64,000 nucleotides of DNA from a bacterium (GTDB lineage Bacteria; UBA8248). The notes under the pieces are model-generated. The model ran no database searches and was not told the origin of the DNA. It saw only the letters and a program-made list of their open reading frames with translations. Positions 1-59,415 of the stretch are shown in pieces. The first letter of the stretch is position 1, and the number at the start of each line of letters is the position of its first letter. The DNA is taken from positions 1,184,001 to 1,248,000 of the forward strand of contig OZ241326.1 in assembly GCA_965199855.1 (NCBI GenBank). Direction: 5' to 3'. A program made the position numbers and the translations under genes.

Positions 1-1875
1 CGCGGTCTGCTGACCGTGCGCCCTCTCCAGCGCGCGGCCAATGTGGGCGAGGGGCGCGCGCGTCGGGGCTTCGGGGCTCGTGAACGTCCCCGTCCAGACG
101 ATGTCGATCGCGCGGGCCGGGCCGGCGCCGCCGCTCCACGCCACCCCGGCGCTGACGCCGTCTTTCGCCGCGCTGATCGTCCCCGCCTGGGTGATGGAGA
201 TCGTCCCGGTCTTGTTGCCCGCGTCGCGCAGGGTGGCCTCGATGCCGTGGTCATGCGTGGAGGTGAGCTCGACGTCCTCCGAGACGCTGATCTCGACCCC
301 GCCGGCCTCGTAGTTCGCCGCCTCGATGGCGACTCCCTTCGCGTGGACCGACCCGCCGGTGACGGCGACCTTGGCGAGGCCGATGTTCTTGGGCGCGACG
401 TAGGCGGCGCGGTCGGTCTCGGTCTCCGCCCTGTGGCTGCCGACCCGCGCCACGATGGCCTCTTTGACGCCCTGCGAGCCGTCGTCGACGGGCTCGTCCG
501 AGGCGACGACGATGGCGCCCGCCGAATGGGTGATGGAGACGCCCGTGTTCGCGCCGTCGGCGTCTTTGCCGGTCGTCTGGGCCAGGATGCCGTGGTCCGT
601 CGCCGTGATGTCGCCGCTGTTGGCGACTGTCACGCCGCCGCTGTCGCCCGCGCCGTCGAGCGCGGCGAAAATGCCGCGGGCCACCGCCGCGTCCGCCCTG
701 CCGATGGCGCCGCTGTTGGTGACGGAGACGGCGCCGCCGGCGCCCTTGGCCGTGACGTAGATGCCGTCGCCGCCCGCCTCGATGTCACCTCTGTTGGTGA
801 CGGAGACGGCGCCCGATCCCCCCAGGCGGTTGGCGACGATGCCCCATCCCGCCGCGACGATCTTTCCCGCCTGGGTGACGGTGATCGTCCCGCTCTCGTT
901 GCCCACGTCGGTCAGATTGGCACGGAGGGCGTCGCCCTCCGTGGAGGTCAGCGTGACGCCCTCGGCGACGTCGACCTCCACCGATCCGGCCTCGTAGTTG
1001 AGCGCCGAGATGGCGAACAGCCTCGAGCTGATCGACCCGCCCGTGACGGAGACCTTGGCCAGCCCCGCGTTCATGGGCGCGACGTAGTCGTCGTGGCCGG
1101 CGTCGGTCTCCTGCCTGGCTTCGCCCACGTGCGCCTTGACGCCCGTGGCGTTCGGCGTCGTGATGTCGCCCGCCGAATGGGTGATGGAGACGCCCGCGTC
1201 GTCGCCGTCGGCGTCCTTGCCGGTCGTTTTGGCGTGGATGCCCGCGGCGTCCGACGTGACGGCGCCGCGGTTCCTGACCGTGATGTCGCCGGCGCCGGGG
1301 TTGCTGACGTAGATGCCGTCGTCCTCGGAGTGGATCGCCGCCGCCGTGGTGACCGAAATGTCGCCGGCGTCGCTCTCGTAGGTCGTGACCTGGATGCCAT
1401 GGCTCTCCATCTTCGCGGTCGCCGTCCCGATCGTCGTCCCGCTCCTGACGTCCAGCGTCGTCGTGGAGCCGTTCCCGGCACGCTGGAAGACGACGATGCC
1501 GCGGTTGTTGTACCAACTGCTCGCCCGCGTGCCGCTCTGCTCGATGGCGACGGCGCCCCCGCTTCCGACCGTGAGGCTGATGTTGTGGGCGTTGGTCGCG
1601 TGGTCGTCCGTTCTGATGGTGACGCCGTTGTGCACGCCGTTGTTCGCCCCGGCCGTGATCGTCGTCGCCGCCCCGCCCGTGACGGTGAGCGTGACGGCGT
1701 TCGCCAGATCCCAATAGACGATGCCGGTATACGCCGCGTCCGGGCAGGTCTGGGTGAACGAGTTGCCCGCATTGAGCGCCCCGCAGTCATCCCGCGCCCG
1801 CGCCTCGCCCGGCGCCAAGAGAAGCGCGAGAAGGGTCGCCAGGGCGATCGCTGCAATCGGTTTCTTCCGGTTCAT
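1..1875 (-). CDS. Large secreted autotransporter/adhesin-like beta-helical protein, 5' part (runs off the window start)
   Basis: Not in the ORF track; read manually: AAGGAG RBS, ATG at 1875, MNRKKPIAAIALATLLALLLAPGEARA signal peptide, then G/A/T/V-rich passenger-like sequence (GIYV..GAGDITV.N.G) with an internal duplication; no stop seen down to position 1. Confidence 0.8.
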   Translation of the reverse strand, partial: MNRKKPIAAIALATLLALLLAPGEARARDDCGALNAGNSFTQTCPDAAYTGIVYWDLANAVTLTVTGGAATTITAGANNGVHNGVTIRTDDHATNAHNISLTVGSGGAVAIEQSGTRASSWYNNRGIVVFQRAGNGSTTTLDVRSGTTIGTATAKMESHGIQVTTYESDAGDISVTTAAAIHSEDDGIYVSNPGAGDITVRNRGAVTSDAAGIHAKTTGKDADGDDAGVSITHSAGDITTPNATGVKAHVGEARQETDAGHDDYVAPMNAGLAKVSVTGGSISSRLFAISALNYEAGSVEVDVAEGVTLTSTEGDALRANLTDVGNESGTITVTQAGKIVAAGWGIVANRLGGSGAVSVTNRGDIEAGGDGIYVTAKGAGGAVSVTNSGAIGRADAAVARGIFAALDGAGDSGGVTVANSGDITATDHGILAQTTGKDADGANTGVSITHSAGAIVVASDEPVDDGSQGVKEAIVARVGSHRAETETDRAAYVAPKNIGLAKVAVTGGSVHAKGVAIEAANYEAGGVEISVSEDVELTSTHDHGIEATLRDAGNKTGTISITQAGTISAAKDGVSAGVAWSGGAGPARAIDIVWTGTFTSPEAPTRAPLAHIGRALERAHGQQTA

Positions 1876-1892
1876 GGATGGCTCCTTTTCAT

Positions 1893-2193
1893 GTCGGTGA
1901 GTCGGTGAGTCGGTGAGTCGGTGAGTCGGTGAGTCGGTGAGTCGGTGAGTCGGTGAGTCGGTGAGTCGGTGAGTCGGTGAGTCGGTGAGTCGGTGAGTCG
2001 GTGAGTCGGTGAGTCGGTGAGTCGGTGAGTCGGTGAGTCGGTGAGTCGGTGAGTCGGTGAGTCGGTGAGTCGGTGAGTCGGTGAGTCGGTGAGTCGGTGA
2101 GTCGGTGAGTCGGTGAGTCGGTGAGTCGGTGAGTCGGTGAGTCGGTGAGTCGGTGAGTCGGTGAGTCGGTCGGTGAGTCGGGGCGGTGAGTCG
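1893..2193. repeat. Octamer tandem repeat (GTCGGTGA)n, about 34.75 perfect units (1893-2170) plus a degenerate tail
   Basis: Directly visible; ends just upstream of the RBS of the 1..1875 gene. Confidence 0.98.
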
Positions 2194-54081: not shown

Positions 54082-54326
54082 GCCCGGTTGCGTAGGGACA
54101 TGGATCGCAAGCGAAGCGGGCGGGGCGGACGACGCCCTCCGCTTCCGTTCCCGACAGCCTGAAAGCGCGGCCTTGGCCGTCATGCGCCCCCATCCGCGCG
54201 GAAGCGCCTCGCGCGAAAGAAAGCCAAGGTCGGGGCGCGCCTCCGCTCCCTGAAAGCGCCCGGGCGTCGTTCCCCTTCCGCAACGTGATGGTCGGCCTTC
54301 TCGCGCCCGCCCGCGAGGGTTCTCGC

Positions 54327-55787
54327 ATGAAGCCCAACTTCAGAAACCGCACCCTGTGGACGGGGGACAACCTCGACATTATGCGGGGGATGAACTCGGG
54401 CGCGGCGGATTTGATCTACCTCGACCCTCCCTTCAACTCGAACCGGGACTACGCCGCCCCCATCGGCTCCGAAGCCGCGGGCGCCGCCTTCAAGGACACC
54501 TGGACGCTGAGCGACGTGGACGAGGCGTGGCACGGCGAGGTCGCCGAGCAGGACCCCGCGCTCTACCGCATCCTCGACGCCGCCGGCCACGCCCACGGCA
54601 GGGGCATGAAATCCTACCTCATCATGATGGCCGTGCGCCTGCTGGAAATGCGGCGGCTCCTGAAGCCCTCAGGCTCCATCTACCTGCACTGCGACCCCAC
54701 GGCGAGCCACTATCTCAAGACGCTGATGGACGCCGTGTTCGGGGCGAGGAACTTCCGAAGCGAGATTGTCTGGAAGCGCACTTCGAGCCATAACCGCGCC
54801 AAGCGGTGGGGGCCGATCCACGATACGATTCTGTTCTATTCGGCGGCGGGGAAATCCACCTGGAACCGCGTTTTGCAACCATTGGACGAGGGCTACGTCG
54901 AAAGATTCTATCGCTACGAAGACGACAGAGGGCGCTACCGGGTCGGCGATTTGACCGGGCCGGGATTGCGCGACGGCGACACCGGCCGGCCCTGGCGGGG
55001 AATCGACCCCTCGACCCGCAGCCGCCACTGGGAATTGCCGCCGGATCGCGCGTTGCCCGGCTGGTTCGTCTTCCCGGAAGGCTACTCGAAGTTGAGCGTA
55101 GGGGATCGCCTGGACGCGCTGGACGGACAGGGCTTGATCTACTGGCCGAAGAAGAAAGGCGGAATGCCCACCTTCAAGCGCTATCTGGGCGAGAACAGCG
55201 GCGCGCCCGTCCAGGACATGATCCTCGACATCAAGCCGCTTTCAGCCGCCGCCATGGAAAATGTGAGCTACCCCACCCAGAAGCCGCTCGCTTTGCTGGA
55301 GCGCGTCATCCGCGCGAGCTCGAACGAGGGCGACGTGGTGCTGGATCCGTTCTGCGGGTGCGCCACCGCCCTGGTCGCCGCCGAGCGGCTGGGCAGGGAG
55401 TGGGTCGGCATCGACCTCTCTCCGCTCGCCGCGAAGCTGGTGAAGTCGCGCCTGGAGAAGGAGATGCGCCTTTTCTACGACGTGCATCACCGGACGGACA
55501 TTCCGAGAAGGACGGACCTGGGCGAGCTGCCCAGCTACAAGACCCACAGGCACACGCTCTACGGCAGGCAGGAGGGCCTGTGCGCGGGCTGCCGCGTGAT
55601 GTTCCCCTTCCGCAACATGACGGTCGACCACGTCGTGCCGCGCGCGAGGGGCGGGAGCGACCACCTGGAGAACCTGCAGCTGCTCTGCGGCGCCTGCAAC
55701 GCCAAGAAGGGAACGCGCCCGCACGAGGCGCTCATCGCCGACCTGGAGCGGGAGGGGCTGCGCCAGCCCCCGCCCCCCCGCGCATGA
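54327..55787 (+). CDS. Beta-class N6/N4 DNA methyltransferase fused to a C-terminal HNH endonuclease
   Basis: DLIYLDPPF (motif IV), YPTQKP, VLDPFCGCAT (motif I), then CAGC...DHVVPRARGG.DH..NLQLLC..CN..K. Confidence 0.92.
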   Translation: MKPNFRNRTLWTGDNLDIMRGMNSGAADLIYLDPPFNSNRDYAAPIGSEAAGAAFKDTWTLSDVDEAWHGEVAEQDPALYRILDAAGHAHGRGMKSYLIMMAVRLLEMRRLLKPSGSIYLHCDPTASHYLKTLMDAVFGARNFRSEIVWKRTSSHNRAKRWGPIHDTILFYSAAGKSTWNRVLQPLDEGYVERFYRYEDDRGRYRVGDLTGPGLRDGDTGRPWRGIDPSTRSRHWELPPDRALPGWFVFPEGYSKLSVGDRLDALDGQGLIYWPKKKGGMPTFKRYLGENSGAPVQDMILDIKPLSAAAMENVSYPTQKPLALLERVIRASSNEGDVVLDPFCGCATALVAAERLGREWVGIDLSPLAAKLVKSRLEKEMRLFYDVHHRTDIPRRTDLGELPSYKTHRHTLYGRQEGLCAGCRVMFPFRNMTVDHVVPRARGGSDHLENLQLLCGACNAKKGTRPHEALIADLEREGLRQPPPPRA

Positions 55788-56611: not shown

Positions 56612-56685
56612 TCCTTGTTGTCTCTACGCATCTCGTAAGGTGCGCTGATTGCTGATACGGGCTTCTTTGGTTTAGGCTCCATTGT

Positions 56686-57285
56686 ATGGGGACTAATGAA
56701 TTAAGAAAGAGAGATGTATGGCAGGATATTGGTGGGGCAAGAGCGACTGCGGCCGCACGCTCTTTTTTTAGCGTATTTCAAAACAGTTTTCAGGGAACAA
56801 ACTTTAGAATTAGGGCGAATCCACAAGAATTCAGAACTGTTTATGTGAATTACCCTCTTTCAGATGAAACGCTATCCGAAATATACACCCCATCTGCTCC
56901 AATCAAAAGACATGGCATAGCGCCGGACTATGCAATCGAGCATATAGAGTCAGGGAAGGCTCTATATGTGGAAGTAAAAAGACAGGATGGTTGGGTAGAA
57001 GGCAAACCCAGAAGTGCGGGCAGAGGAAATGTTCACGAAAGGTGTTGTAGATACTTCACTCCGGGATTGCTAAAGATTTTACGCGAAAAAGGTAAGATAC
57101 ATGAAAGCGCCTTGCCTTTTTGGGCAGTCTTTCAGGGCGACATAACCAGAGACCCGTGCAGGGTAAGGGAAATTACTTGTTGGTTTGACATATACGCTAA
57201 TCATTGCTTCTTTTGGCGCGATATTAAAGACCCGACTCAGTTGATAGAGCATTTCGATCAAAACCTGAAACATCTTCTTTGTTAG
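56686..57285 (+). CDS. MunI-family type II restriction endonuclease
   Basis: PDYAIE...EVKRQDGWVEGK..SAGRGNVHER.C..FTPGLLK, LPFW.VF.GDITRDP.RVREI matches R.MunI as I recall it. Confidence 0.9.
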   Translation: MGTNELRKRDVWQDIGGARATAAARSFFSVFQNSFQGTNFRIRANPQEFRTVYVNYPLSDETLSEIYTPSAPIKRHGIAPDYAIEHIESGKALYVEVKRQDGWVEGKPRSAGRGNVHERCCRYFTPGLLKILREKGKIHESALPFWAVFQGDITRDPCRVREITCWFDIYANHCFFWRDIKDPTQLIEHFDQNLKHLLC

Positions 57286-57967
57286 CAATAGCGTTGTCGT
57301 GAAACGTCTCTAAACCCCAAGACTCCCAGCCGTTTCTTTTTGCTCTGGCAAACAGTTCGATTTTTTTCTGAGCGGGAAACATTTTTTCTATGTTTTCGGC
57401 TACTTGGATTGGTTTTTCGCTATGTCTTGCTCTTGGCGAGCTTATCAGCTGTTTGATGTTTCTAGCTCCCCTTGGCTTGGGTATTCGCCCTTTCTTGAAC
57501 AGGAGACACAATTCACAATAAGAAAGGGTGTATTGCCCCGGATTGTGCATCATTTTGTTCCATACGAACGCCACGGTTTTATATTCAAAACCCCAAGCAT
57601 TGCCAAGTTCCATGGCTTGTTGCAAATGCGGATTAGTTGTCCACAAAAATAAAAGGCTGTCATCTTCGGCTATCGAGGCTATGTTAAGTTTTTTCAATTC
57701 CGATGTTTTTATAGTTGGGTATTTGAACGAGGCGGCACTGACAAAAACATCTTTTCGCCACCCATCATTTTCTGCGATGGTTCCCGACTTATCAAATTGC
57801 AATTTCCCGTTATAGTGCCAAGGTGGATCGGCGTATAGAATTGAAAACTTTGAATCTGGCAATGGGGGGTAAATTTCCCCAAGAGTGTTTGTCTTCGTTT
57901 TTTTAATGACTTTTTCACCGTAGATGGCGTAACCAGACCTCACTTGTTTTGTGCTCGAACCTTTCAT
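57224..57967 (-). CDS. MT-A70 family N6-adenine DNA methyltransferase (M.MunI-like)
   Basis: ILYADPPW, LFLWTT.P.L, WGFEYKT.AFVW.K, HSEKP, KIELFAR; AGAGGTG RBS. Confidence 0.92.
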   Translation of the reverse strand: MKGSSTKQVRSGYAIYGEKVIKKTKTNTLGEIYPPLPDSKFSILYADPPWHYNGKLQFDKSGTIAENDGWRKDVFVSAASFKYPTIKTSELKKLNIASIAEDDSLLFLWTTNPHLQQAMELGNAWGFEYKTVAFVWNKMMHNPGQYTLSYCELCLLFKKGRIPKPRGARNIKQLISSPRARHSEKPIQVAENIEKMFPAQKKIELFARAKRNGWESWGLETFHDNAIANKEDVSGFDRNALSTESGL

Positions 57968-58115
57968 AATTCACCTCTTGTTGAAGGTTCAATGCTATGG
58001 CATCAGCTTATTCACATGCCCAATTTGCCAAACACCTTTGGCCTTAATTCGATAATATGTTTTATTGTATTTTTCTCCAACCCGATTTGTGCTAGCATAT
58101 TAGATGTCGGGGGAT

Positions 58116-58185
58116 TGGTGGAGCGCCGGGGAATCGAACCCCGCGAGCGTGGGCTCTAAAACCTGCCCGGGAACCTCCGCGCCCC
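58116..58185 (-). ncRNA. Non-canonical 70-nt tRNA-like RNA with alanine acceptor identity
   Basis: GGGGCGC/GCGCTCC 7-bp acceptor with G3:U70, discriminator A, encoded CCA; T arm CGGGG-TTCGATT-CCCCG; only 35 nt between acceptor and T arm, no normal D arm or anticodon arm. Confidence 0.7.
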
Positions 58186-58289
58186 ATAAATCCCGCTTTG
58201 TCGCTTGCCGGCTCAGGGACGAACTGAAACCGGCTAGCGATTCGGCCCTACCCAGGAACGTTCTGGGTAGGGCTTCAAATCCCCGCCCA
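58186..58289 (-). ncRNA. Structured 5' domain/leader of the tRNA-like RNA (two long hairpins)
   Basis: GCCCTACCCAG..CTGGGTAGGGC and TCGCTAGCCGGTTTCAG..CTGAGCCGGCAAGCGA hairpins between the promoter and the tRNA-like domain. Confidence 0.55.
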
Positions 58290-58294
58290 CGCAA

Positions 58295-58323
58295 AACATA
58301 GCCCCTTGCGGGCTCCCTGTCAA
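58295..58323 (-). promoter_or_regulatory. Sigma70 promoter driving the structured RNA
   Basis: TTGACA-N17-TATGTT on the minus strand. Confidence 0.7.
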
Positions 58324-58402
58324 GGCGCTAACGCTCATGTTGTCGATATTGTTGTTAAATTTTACCCACCAAATCAGTTAAGTTTTATTTTGTTGGCAGG
58401 GG

Positions 58403-58431
58403 TTGACAGGGGGAATGAAAACCCGTATCGT
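58403..58431 (+). promoter_or_regulatory. Sigma70 promoter for 58456..59265
   Basis: TTGACA-N17-TATCGT followed by GGAGGTG RBS. Confidence 0.7.
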
Positions 58432-58455
58432 GGTGGAAGGGTGGGAGGTGTCGCT

Positions 58456-59265
58456 ATGAATAATGATGCAACAGAAGGTCCTAAAAAGAAGCGTGCTGGC
58501 CGGAGCCCGAGTTATCCTGTAATAGATATTCAAACAGCCTTGAAGCGCGCCCAAGAACTTTACGATCAAGCTCAGCATCACTATTCCCCGGTGGATATCG
58601 TGGCAAAACATTGGGGATATAATCCTGGAAGCGGATTGGCGGCTAGCACTATCGCGGCCCTGATAAGGTATGGGTTTCTGGTAGCTGAAGGTGCGGCGAA
58701 AGAGCGCAAAGTCCGCCTTACGGATTTTTCCCTCGATATAATCAGGGATAAAAGAAGGGCCTCTGCGGAGCGAGATCGGAGGATCATGGAGGCTGCATTA
58801 AGGCCGAAGATTCATGCTGAAATATATGAAATGTATGGATATGATTTGGTGTCAGATGCAGATCTCTTATATGAATTGGAGAGGAATAAGAACTTCACGC
58901 CTAGCGGAGCAAAAGAGTTTATCTCTCAATATAAACGGACATTGGAGTTCATAAAGGGCTTGGGGGTTGAAGAGACCTTCTCTGGCGAAGGCGCTGATGA
59001 ACAGCCAGTAAGCGCACTGCCAACAGAGCATCAAACCGATGAAACGGGTGGGGACATTCCTTCTCCTCCAAAAGGGGGGAATGTGCAAACAATAAAGATT
59101 CCCATGCTGGAAGGCGTGTGGCCCACTTTAACCGCACAATTCCCGATGAACAAAGAGGACTGGGATTATATGATAAAAGTCTTAACAACAATGGAACCAA
59201 AGTTGGTTAAAGCAGAACCCCAATTTCAAGAGGTTGCAACAGAAGGAGAGGCGGAGAATCCCTAG
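58456..59265 (+). CDS. Uncharacterised protein, probable winged-helix nucleic-acid-binding N-domain, acidic linker, small C-domain
   Basis: RSPSYP.I.I..A, A..WGY...SG....IAAL..YGFL...V.LT wing-like pattern; strong RBS. Confidence 0.75.
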   Translation: MNNDATEGPKKKRAGRSPSYPVIDIQTALKRAQELYDQAQHHYSPVDIVAKHWGYNPGSGLAASTIAALIRYGFLVAEGAAKERKVRLTDFSLDIIRDKRRASAERDRRIMEAALRPKIHAEIYEMYGYDLVSDADLLYELERNKNFTPSGAKEFISQYKRTLEFIKGLGVEETFSGEGADEQPVSALPTEHQTDETGGDIPSPPKGGNVQTIKIPMLEGVWPTLTAQFPMNKEDWDYMIKVLTTMEPKLVKAEPQFQEVATEGEAENP

Positions 59266-59342
59266 AGTAAAACGAAAAATTTTTTGAGGGTTGGATGGCA
59301 TTGAAGAAGAGCTTTCGTGCCCGTGTGTGAGCTGTGTGAGAA

Positions 59343-59371
59343 GGCGCCGCCATAAGCGAGGCGCCGTTTTT
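59343..59371 (+). terminator. Possible intrinsic terminator
   Basis: GGCGCC...GGCGCC stem followed by GTTTTT. Confidence 0.4.
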
Positions 59372-59415
59372 GCTTCTCCTTTATTTTTCTATTCCTACGG
59401 AGGAACGACAAGGAA

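Follow-up and report, generated by a model that had tools for sequence, protein, structure and literature searches.

A conserved tRNA-shaped RNA with alanine identity bases, encoded back to back with a gene for a predicted winged-helix protein

The stretch of bacterial DNA analysed here (lineage UBA8248, assembly GCA_965199855.1, contig OZ241326.1, positions 1,184,001 to 1,248,000; all of its 64,000 nucleotides are called the window) contains, on its minus strand, a gene for an RNA of 70 nucleotides (nt) shaped like a transfer RNA (tRNA) at positions 58185-58116. It stands divergently to a plus-strand gene for a protein of 269 residues, P0001 (58456-59265), with a predicted winged helix. The RNA is conserved across distant bacteria, usually back to back with a gene of the P0001 family, and the two form a two-gene cassette located on mobile or hot-spot DNA. 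Its fold and identity bases are under selection, and it is a real RNA gene with the L-shape of a tRNA, consisting of an acceptor stem, a T arm and a miniature D arm with GG. As to what the cassette does, we propose that the winged-helix protein represses the RNA, and that the RNA, charged with alanine by alanyl-tRNA synthetase (AlaRS), acts on translation in trans as the effector of a regulator-effector pair. We give this reading, drawn from comparison of sequences, a probability of about 0.45.

Selection on the RNA is apparent from its homologs. In a DNA search of 40 other genomes, four of the same genus gave extended matches; all other matches were stretches of 28-31 nt between the T arm and ordinary tRNAs. 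The same shape written in other letters was found in a metagenome-assembled genome (MAG) of Nitrospinota and on two viral contigs; in the MAG the same RNA-protein pair is present, with a compensated acceptor stem (GGGACGC/GCGTTCC). Alignment of the RNAs with MAFFT put the 5' strands in wrong places, so a covariance model was built stepwise from a two-sequence alignment, and 30 matches from several phyla and viral contigs were aligned. In this alignment, whose fitting to the model biases it towards structure, standard pairs occupy 91.8% of cells in the 30 homologs, against 69.4% after shuffling and 49-61% when the partners are slid by 1-3 columns; 12 of the 17 pairs change on both sides, and none of 500 shuffles reaches the covariation score. 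The acceptor stem is paired throughout (7/7) in 25 homologs and the T stem (5/5) in 28, the T loop reads TTCRANY in 28, and a miniature D hairpin of 3-4 base pairs (bp), with GG in or beside its loop, is recognized by a crude rule in 24, with stem letters that differ between homologs (GGGT/ACCC, GGTG/CACC, GGAT/ATCC). An earlier reading of the window from its sequence alone (below, the sequence-only reading) had taken the RNA for a functional tRNA mimic rather than a product of random decay, a view to be judged by covariation among homologs; that covariation, together with the lack of a host copy, upholds it.

The pattern of change within the acceptor stem is uneven. Pairs 4-7 each occur as four or five pair types and covary, as do the outer pairs of the T stem, while the end of the acceptor stem hardly varies: G1:C72 is kept in 30 of the 30 homologs, G2:C71 in 29, G3:U70 in 29 and A73 in 30. 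The alanine identity set (G3:U70, A73 and G2:C71) is present in the window RNA, and the conservation of G3:U70 and A73 confirms the alanine determinants first noticed there. By the identity rule of AlaRS, G3:U70 is read independently of the anticodon; because the enzyme ignores the anticodon, any charged RNA of this type would carry alanine whatever its loop. Apart from a function involving AlaRS or one similar to that of transfer-messenger RNA (tmRNA), we know of nothing that would preserve a G:U pair at 3:70, and the persistence of this pair while its neighbours covary is one of the grounds for suggesting an alanylated effector. The usual tRNA maturation would be needed, because CCA, although encoded in the window copy, is encoded in only 12 of the 30 relatives; in many bacteria, real tRNA genes often lack an encoded CCA.

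The association of the RNA with the protein family was examined in a metagenome scan, which gave 77 loci encoding P0001 relatives, 65 of them with at least 350 nt upstream. These neighbour statistics rest on short metagenome contigs and include near-duplicate loci (L025/26, L051/53, L055/58, L065/66, L070/71, L079/81, L089-91), so that independent counts are somewhat lower. Upstream of the protein gene, the RNA is present at an expectation value (E) of at most 1e-3 in 22 of the 65 loci, a tRNA called by ARAGORN lies within 400 nt in a further 14 (anticodons tgc, ggc, ggt, cgt, ctg, tga, gga, tgg and tta), and six loci show a weak match to the model only. Across the 22 loci with the RNA, 39-307 nt separate it from the start codon, and 20 of the arrangements are divergent. 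The protein occurs in six of 51 reference genomes of the phylum and is accompanied by the RNA in four of the six, one of these belonging to another family of the class. That the RNA goes with the neighbouring protein family, as the window had suggested, is thus borne out in the 22 metagenome loci and in the four genomes.

The slot occupied by the RNA is not reserved for a single kind of molecule. In L023, L040, L077 and L088 it holds ordinary-looking tRNAs with alanine anticodons and without G3:U70; identity and anticodon therefore look uncoupled in both directions, as far as can be read from the sequences. Four loci (L032, L051, L072, L077) have tRNAs upstream of the winged-helix gene with a near-identical acceptor and D-arm body (GCCC..GTAGCT.A..GGATA.AGC) and the anticodons ggt, cgt, ctg and tgc, as though a single tRNA body had been fitted with different anticodons. 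Locus L076 has two RNAs of the class in tandem before one winged-helix gene (177-247 and 260-329, minus strand), with different acceptor stems and middle-arm triplets. In L013 (genome G003) 10 nt separate a class-A RNA (1504-1574, minus strand) from the tRNA downstream of it (1406-1493, minus strand), which is 88 nt long, has a long variable arm and the amber anticodon cta, and is labelled tRNA-Pyl by ARAGORN. Locus L012 (genome G004; 671-2048, plus strand) is composed of a gene for a DUF5343-like protein of 231 residues, a ggc tRNA without G3:U70, a class-A RNA (1501-1571) and a normal tRNA-Ala(cgc), and differs from the window in both gene order and partner. We rejected DUF5343 as a general partner: the family is present in five of the 51 genomes of the phylum, and only one of the five loci has the RNA beside it.

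In the window, the RNA gene is headed by a sigma-70-like promoter, TTGACA-17-TATGTT (58323-58295, minus strand), identified by direct reading and by a consensus scan that gave three promoter-like sites against 0.9 expected in shuffles. A leader of about 109 nt follows (58294-58186, from reading and the minimum-free-energy fold), with hairpin 1, which has 11-bp arms, at 58273-58245 and hairpin 2 at 58234-58207. Two copies of GCGGG(G)ATTT lie in the leader (58286-58277 and 58196-58188), and the second pairs in the minimum-free-energy fold with AATCCCC in the trailer 3' of CCA. The pairing of hairpin 1 is preserved despite two-sided changes in genome G008 and in the Nitrospinota copy. This long leader with two hairpins is common only to the copies of the window, G008 and the Nitrospinota MAG, and the distance from the RNA to the protein start is only 117-195 nt in most other loci. 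The tRNA-like unit itself consists, still on the minus strand, of the acceptor 5' strand GGGGCGC (58185-58179), a miniature D hairpin GGA-GGT-TCC (58178-58170; a 9-nt stretch holding GG, with 3 bp and a 3-nt loop), an irregular middle arm of 26 nt that has TTTTAGA in its loop and abuts the T stem (58169-58144), the T arm CGGGG-TTCGATT-CCCCG (58143-58127), the acceptor 3' strand GCGCTCC, which forms the G3:T70 pair with the 5' strand (58126-58120), A73 (58119) and the encoded CCA (58118-58116). In the trailer (58115-58050, minus strand), stretches reading AATCCC..., ATATTAG.ACAA... and ATACAAT are conserved, as judged by eye only, among three copies of the window's genus.

Minus-strand reading confirmed the promoter, the leader hairpins, the acceptor stem with G3:U70, A73 and CCA, the T arm, the GCGGG(G)ATTT copies and the trailer as the sequence-only reading had given them; its 9-nt stemless D loop, however, folds as a 3-bp mini-hairpin, with a stem at the same place in the homologs counted above. 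The minimum-free-energy fold of 58292-58105 comprises both hairpins, the cloverleaf and the leader/trailer stem (z = -3.72, equalled by none of 200 shuffles), and the opposite strand of the same segment folds almost equally well (z = -3.66). Because both strands fold similarly, the strand of the RNA is fixed by its promoter, by the T-loop motif and by the 3:70 G:T pair, kept in 29 of the 30 homologs, in place of which the other strand would have an A-C mismatch.

The protein gene has a mirror promoter of its own, TTGACA-17-TATCGT (58403-58431, plus strand), found by the consensus scan; TTGACAGGG is common to the two back-to-back promoters. The spacer that separates them (58324-58402) holds TAAAATTTAAC, which, as judged by eye only, recurs in the same spacer of G008, within a 21-nt tandem repeat, and in a near-identical form in G015. 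We regard this spacer motif as a candidate operator.

The middle arm is where the RNA departs furthest from a tRNA. In the window it has 5 bp, an internal loop, 2 bp and an 8-nt loop, and the arms of homologs are irregular too, with loops of 8-10 nt and bulges on the 3' side. A motif similar to an anticodon loop is nevertheless recognizable in it (pyrimidine, T, three variable bases, purine or C, A), and ARAGORN accepts some of the homologs as cloverleaf tRNAs, namely as Stop(tta) in L028, L050 and L033, Asp(gtc) in L078 and Ser(gga) in L202, while it rejects the window copy. The claim that the decoding arm had been lost is thus correct insofar as the window arm is irregular and is rejected as a tRNA, and too strong insofar as the loop motif persists and certain homologs read as tRNAs. 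To judge from these letters, the decoding arm is degraded, not erased.

Searches against known families agree with the view that the RNA is not a described one, within the scope of Rfam for the RNA and Pfam for the protein. ARAGORN detects no tRNA or tmRNA anywhere in the 64-kilobase (kb) window, and no family of Rfam 15, the tRNA family RF00005 included, reaches its gathering score on the RNA. At permissive thresholds mascRNA (RF01684) scores 25 bits against 42.5 and the permuted tmRNA (RF04321) 13 against 47, and Y RNA (YrlA) gives no row for the locus even at E ≤ 10. On 20 homolog loci, Rfam matches were limited to ordinary tRNAs and a thiamine pyrophosphate (TPP) riboswitch, and no family covers the RNA. 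The RNA shares with canonical tRNAs a 7-bp acceptor stem, a 5-bp T stem and a 7-nt T loop, and differs from them in a D hairpin of 3 bp with a 3-nt loop, in the abnormal middle arm and in the silence of the detectors. The idea that it is an attachment-site (att) scar or other host copy was tried and rejected: neither the three host tRNA-Ala genes nor the 3' end of the host tmRNA (the product of ssrA) matches exactly, and the nearest match to the 3' end of the RNA is that of tRNA-Lys(ctt), at 26 of 28 bases. A search of the host genome found no second copy of either the RNA or the protein.

The partner is equally without a name, P0001 having no match in Pfam, NCBIfam, PADLOC or PHROGs. A word-indexed search gave 24 relatives, the window protein included, and an exhaustive profile search gave 5977 cluster representatives (clustered at 50% identity) at E ≤ 0.001, of which 2140 reach E ≤ 1e-30. 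The open reading frames (ORFs) of P0001 relatives and those of the transposase-like genes considered below are open, at 273-290 residues in most loci. In the AlphaFold model (mean predicted local distance difference test score, pLDDT, 80.6), residues 23-105 are predicted to form a winged helix (MarR, Z 8.5, root-mean-square deviation 2.4, 72 residues aligned). Residues 15-177 of the model superpose on BrxA (PDB 7zge; Z 7.8, 144 aligned) through the helical second half, and on the recognition domain of FokI (Z 8.1, 166 aligned); a low-confidence, probably disordered linker (176-207) and a small beta/alpha C-terminal domain are predicted to follow. Values of Z between 7 and 8 are in the range of common winged-helix arrangements, and a Foldseek search of P0001 against the PDB gave nothing at E ≤ 0.001. 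The model therefore indicates a DNA-binding type of fold and allows no closer claim. Among the named clusters of the ESM Atlas, DUF5343 (PF17278) comes nearest, at 0.90, which is a lead only; kinship between P0001 and the three DUF5343-like neighbours of the same RNA is unsupported by sequence, the hhalign probability being 0.8%.

How could such a pair operate? In the mechanism we envisage, the protein would bind the spacer between the two promoters and control, most likely repress, both its own gene and that of the RNA. The transcript would be trimmed by RNase P at G1 and also at its 3' end, and the host AlaRS would then alanylate it through G3:U70, G2:C71 and A73, as expected from the anticodon-independent identity rule. 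The charged RNA, with the elbow of T loop and GG kept and with TTA in an irregular arm, would act in trans on the translation apparatus, either as a nonsense or near-cognate decoder that inserts alanine or as a non-productive ligand of the ribosome or of a factor. The pair would accordingly resemble a toxin/antitoxin or an abortive-infection system with an RNA as its effector. We count in favour of a two-gene unit that RNA and protein alone persist in G008 and G015, and in favour of a DNA-binding regulator that the two promoters face outward with a shared motif between them. An effector role is suggested because relatives without the RNA have nucleases and further genes of toxin type in its place, and because, in the text of Mukai et al., irregular tRNAs with G3:U70 from similar metagenomes insert alanine and induced irregular tRNAs can arrest or kill Escherichia coli (PMC5389517).

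Several observations, besides the structural bias of the alignment, weigh against this reading. Nothing tRNA-like lies upstream of the gene in 23 of the 65 family loci, which makes the RNA dispensable for the protein. Conversely, the RNA occurs without P0001: in L012, L020 and L021 it is beside a DUF5343-like gene, and in four viral loci it has neither a P0001-family nor a DUF5343-like gene within 2.5 kb. The middle arm contains TTA in only 16 of the 30 homologs, its central triplet being variable, and ordinary decoding by the window RNA is doubtful in view of the irregular arm and its rejection by ARAGORN. The tRNAs that serve as precedent have other shapes (8/4 and 9/3). Finally, a same-strand gene comes after the RNA in most loci, and the consensus scan of the window saw no terminator-like site between the RNA and the methylase gene downstream, which fits a role in cis as well.

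A cis role is the most probable of the alternatives, although we consider it unlikely. The RNA would be a leader whose tRNA-like fold processes or stabilizes the messenger RNA (mRNA) of the following gene, transposase-like in other loci and a methylase here, with RNase P cleavage and 3' trimming setting the 5' end or the half-life and with no function in trans. Of the 82 loci analysed, 23 have an ORF for an IS1-type transposase-like protein (PF03400, E 9.5e-09 and 2.6e-08) just downstream on the RNA strand; among the 22 metagenome loci with a strict RNA match it is present in 13, and several of the remaining nine extend for less than 400 nt on that side. The start codon follows the RNA by 40-50 nt in L019 and L020, and in the window the gene for an MT-A70-type DNA methylase (57224-57967, minus strand, as the RNA) begins 149 nt past CCA. 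Against this, processing makes no demand on G3:U70 or A73, which nevertheless persist in 29-30 of the 30 homologs, and in G008 and G015, which have both RNA and protein, no gene follows the RNA. The association is also loose when the transposase-like gene is taken as the starting point, the RNA being present in only six of 79 viral loci, the P0001 family in three and a DUF5343-like gene in two; for the same reason the transposase-like gene was rejected as an obligate partner.

A shade less probable still is a genuine decoding function: the RNA would be a suppressor tRNA, for ochre or another codon, or a spare donor of alanine, carried as useful cargo by a mobile element for its own genes or against host defences that cleave tRNAs, with the protein as a mere regulator. 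The cloverleafs that ARAGORN accepts among the homologs would fit this, as would the copy beside the amber-type tRNA, another copy between tRNA genes and the copies on viral contigs. However, an unsystematic look at the neighbouring ORFs saw no in-frame stop codon for a suppressor to read, a tRNA with G3:U70 and a non-alanine anticodon would miscode rather than help, and the window arm is not a standard anticodon arm.

We consider it improbable that the RNA mimics the tRNA-like domain of tmRNA, binding SmpB and either entering stalled ribosomes or titrating SmpB, and so modulates rescue. Its G3:U70, A73-CCA, standard T arm, shrunken D region and a helix in place of the anticodon arm are all as such a mimic would have them, and the Rfam tmRNA model (RF00023), in a search of 801 nt, aligns end to end over both termini of the RNA, skipping 316 inner positions, with 23.5 bits (E 1.9e-07). 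This score is half of the threshold of 47, however, and ordinary host tRNAs, tRNA-Ala genes among them, reach 22-41 bits with the same model. The covarying D stem is unlike tmRNA, the RNA is only 70 nt long and has no mRNA-like domain, tag reading frame or pseudoknots, and the host has its own complete tmRNA 185 kb away, with a different 3' end. That the RNA is a functionless, decaying remnant of a tRNA or tmRNA, or an att scar, is scarcely credible: its place in a low-GC insert that was acquired horizontally at an intergenic hot spot of variable content and the resemblance of its T arm to that of the host tRNA-Lys(ctt) are outweighed by the lack of an exact host copy, by two acceptor strands that are both present and covary across phyla, by its own promoter, by its conserved position beside one protein family and by identities among the homologs (56-78% in protein, 75-79% in RNA) that argue against recent copying.

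The alanylated-effector reading has a wider form, which we hold to be rather doubtful: that a widespread two-gene conflict cassette has as its active part an RNA toxin of tRNA shape, with identity bases uncoupled from the anticodon-like loop, charged with alanine by AlaRS and kept silent by its winged-helix partner, to be released under threat to the cell or to a mobile element and then to corrupt or stall translation. In a bolder variant, the RNA may be a cofactor of the frequent IS1-type transposase-like protein.

The setting of the cassette in the window is a low-GC insert (56612-59396) between an enoyl-CoA hydratase gene and a nitroreductase-like gene, 2.8 kb long, with a GC content of 43-49% against about 68-70% around it and without a counterpart in the closest relative, G001. 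Besides the RNA and the P0001 gene it carries a gene for a MunI-like type II restriction endonuclease (56686-57285, plus strand) and the MT-A70 methylase gene; it is the defence islet of the sequence-only reading. The methylase occupies the cargo position held in most other loci by the IS1-type transposase-like gene. Inserts in G008 and G015 at the same site (about 1.6 and 1.3 kb) contain the RNA and the protein only. Between the cassettes of the three genomes the proteins are 56-57% and the RNAs 75-77% identical, while the flanks are 78-86% identical; this greater divergence of the cassette points to exchange at a hot spot over simple co-descent, if sequence identities are taken as a guide. 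The gap between the hydratase and nitroreductase-like genes also varies within the genus (L100-L104), from about 110 nt in G001 to 320 nt in G005, 880 nt in G019 and 1360 nt in G002. In L101 (G015), a 29-nt direct repeat with 93% identity (203-231 and 269-297) lies just outside the RNA end of the cassette; it takes in the hydratase stop codon and may have been left by cassette insertion. Just upstream of the hydratase gene, and outside the islet, an ORF with host-like GC content (54285-55787, plus strand) encodes N6_N4 DNA methylase and HNH endonuclease domains.

The cargo at other loci is varied. Fic or PrsW genes come after the tRNA in some loci of the family, and NYN nuclease or DUF3800 genes take the divergent position in loci without the RNA; all four are of the kind usually met as cargo of conflict or toxin systems. 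A protein of about 100-125 residues, without a Pfam match and with a conserved W.G.V.VFE-like motif, is encoded after the winged-helix gene in 12 loci (for example L030:2804-3181, L022:1286-1642, L021:2592-3014 and L123:1476-1853), and it is also found in RNA loci with the other partner. Relatives of the transposase-like protein are present on 241 viral contigs, and among L120-L198 most are without a tRNA-like RNA upstream; the protein itself is without the N-terminal zinc finger present in L082, L085 and L092. In L061, a 28-nt inverted repeat with 82% complementarity (72-99 and 2495-2522) encloses a four-gene unit (transposase-like protein, RNA, winged-helix protein and small protein) and by its sequence looks like the two ends of a 2.45-kb transposable unit. 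No bracketing inverted repeats were found in the window, G008 or G015, and of 21 transposase-bearing loci with enough flank only L061 has them, L044 being marginal. The window locus is thus no IS1 insertion sequence, having neither a transposase gene nor a bracketing repeat.

The linkage described here joins an uncharacterised RNA and an uncharacterised protein family into one testable unit, which in G015 and G008 is about 1.3-1.6 kb long and could be cloned whole. The frozen G3:U70 and the free anticodon-like loop provide a clean experimental handle. If the RNA is charged and acts on the ribosome, mobile DNA would carry a natural instance of miscoding or readthrough that is deliberate and regulated, and the irregular G3:U70 tRNAs seen earlier in the neighbourhood of toxin-antitoxin genes would have an explanation. 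If its service is instead to the transposase-like gene, the RNAs known to accompany transposases would gain a tRNA-shaped member. The RNA may further be of use in genetic-code work, as a compact scaffold that accepts alanine.

Among known systems, the tRNA-like domain of tmRNA is charged with alanine without need of an anticodon, and it resembles the window RNA in G3:U70, A73-CCA, the canonical T arm, the reduced D region and the lack of an ordinary anticodon arm. The window RNA differs in having no mRNA-like part or pseudoknots, in its stemmed D region and in coexisting with a separate full tmRNA in the genome; tmRNAs of jakobid mitochondria, for their part, are reduced to little beyond the tRNA-like domain. 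Small RNAs paired with an adjacent gene on mobile DNA are familiar from ToxI of type III and CreT of type VIII toxin-antitoxin systems, and in type VIII the RNA is itself toxic and acts on translation. In contrast to ToxI, the window RNA has no tandem repeats, and its partner resembles a DNA-binding regulator and not a nuclease or a Cascade complex. Regulators of the BrxR/CapW type, with a winged helix-turn-helix, head variable defence or conflict cargo, and the present family is similar in that a conserved DNA-binding gene stands divergent from interchangeable cargo (NYN, DUF3800, Fic, transposase-like, restriction-modification); P0001 itself has no sequence match to the models of Pfam, NCBIfam, PHROGs or PADLOC.

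The closest precedents among tRNAs are the irregular tRNAs that Mukai et al. (2017, Nucleic Acids Research, PMC5389517) describe from soil and sediment metagenomes, some of them with G3:U70 and a UUA anticodon and located near toxin-antitoxin systems and transposable elements. According to the text of that paper, the G3:U70 species insert alanine, some irregular tRNAs are inactive and some arrest or kill E. coli when induced, and missense or nonsense suppression or a role as regulatory RNAs is proposed for them (PMC5389517). The window RNA is like them in being non-canonical and metagenome-borne, in the G3:U70 and UUA of some members and in its vicinity to mobile elements. The allo-tRNAs of that text, however, have 8/4 or 9/3 acceptor and T stems and a long variable arm, whereas the window RNA is 7/5, without a variable arm, and has a miniature D arm and an irregular long middle arm; the text, figures and supplements aside, names no partner protein family (PMC5389517). 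Mitochondrial tRNAs with reduced D arms are functional, the shortened elbow being compensated by other parts, and the portion of that review of non-canonical tRNAs consulted here describes no RNA class like the present one (PMC7609411). As described there, those molecules are organellar, with a normal anticodon arm and dedicated factors, while the window RNA is bacterial or phage-borne, with a perfect T arm and an abnormal middle arm. A literature search, which covered papers and not their supplements, found none on the protein family or on DUF5343 and no description of the RNA class. On the strength of these sequence comparisons, the RNA appears most similar to the tRNA-like domain of tmRNA and to the irregular tRNAs of Mukai et al., yet fails the defining tests of each; it would function much as the acceptor/T minihelix of tRNA-Ala does, with an elbow added. 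Non-canonical tRNAs on mobile DNA, with identity uncoupled from the anticodon, are a known kind, and what is new is their winged-helix partner.

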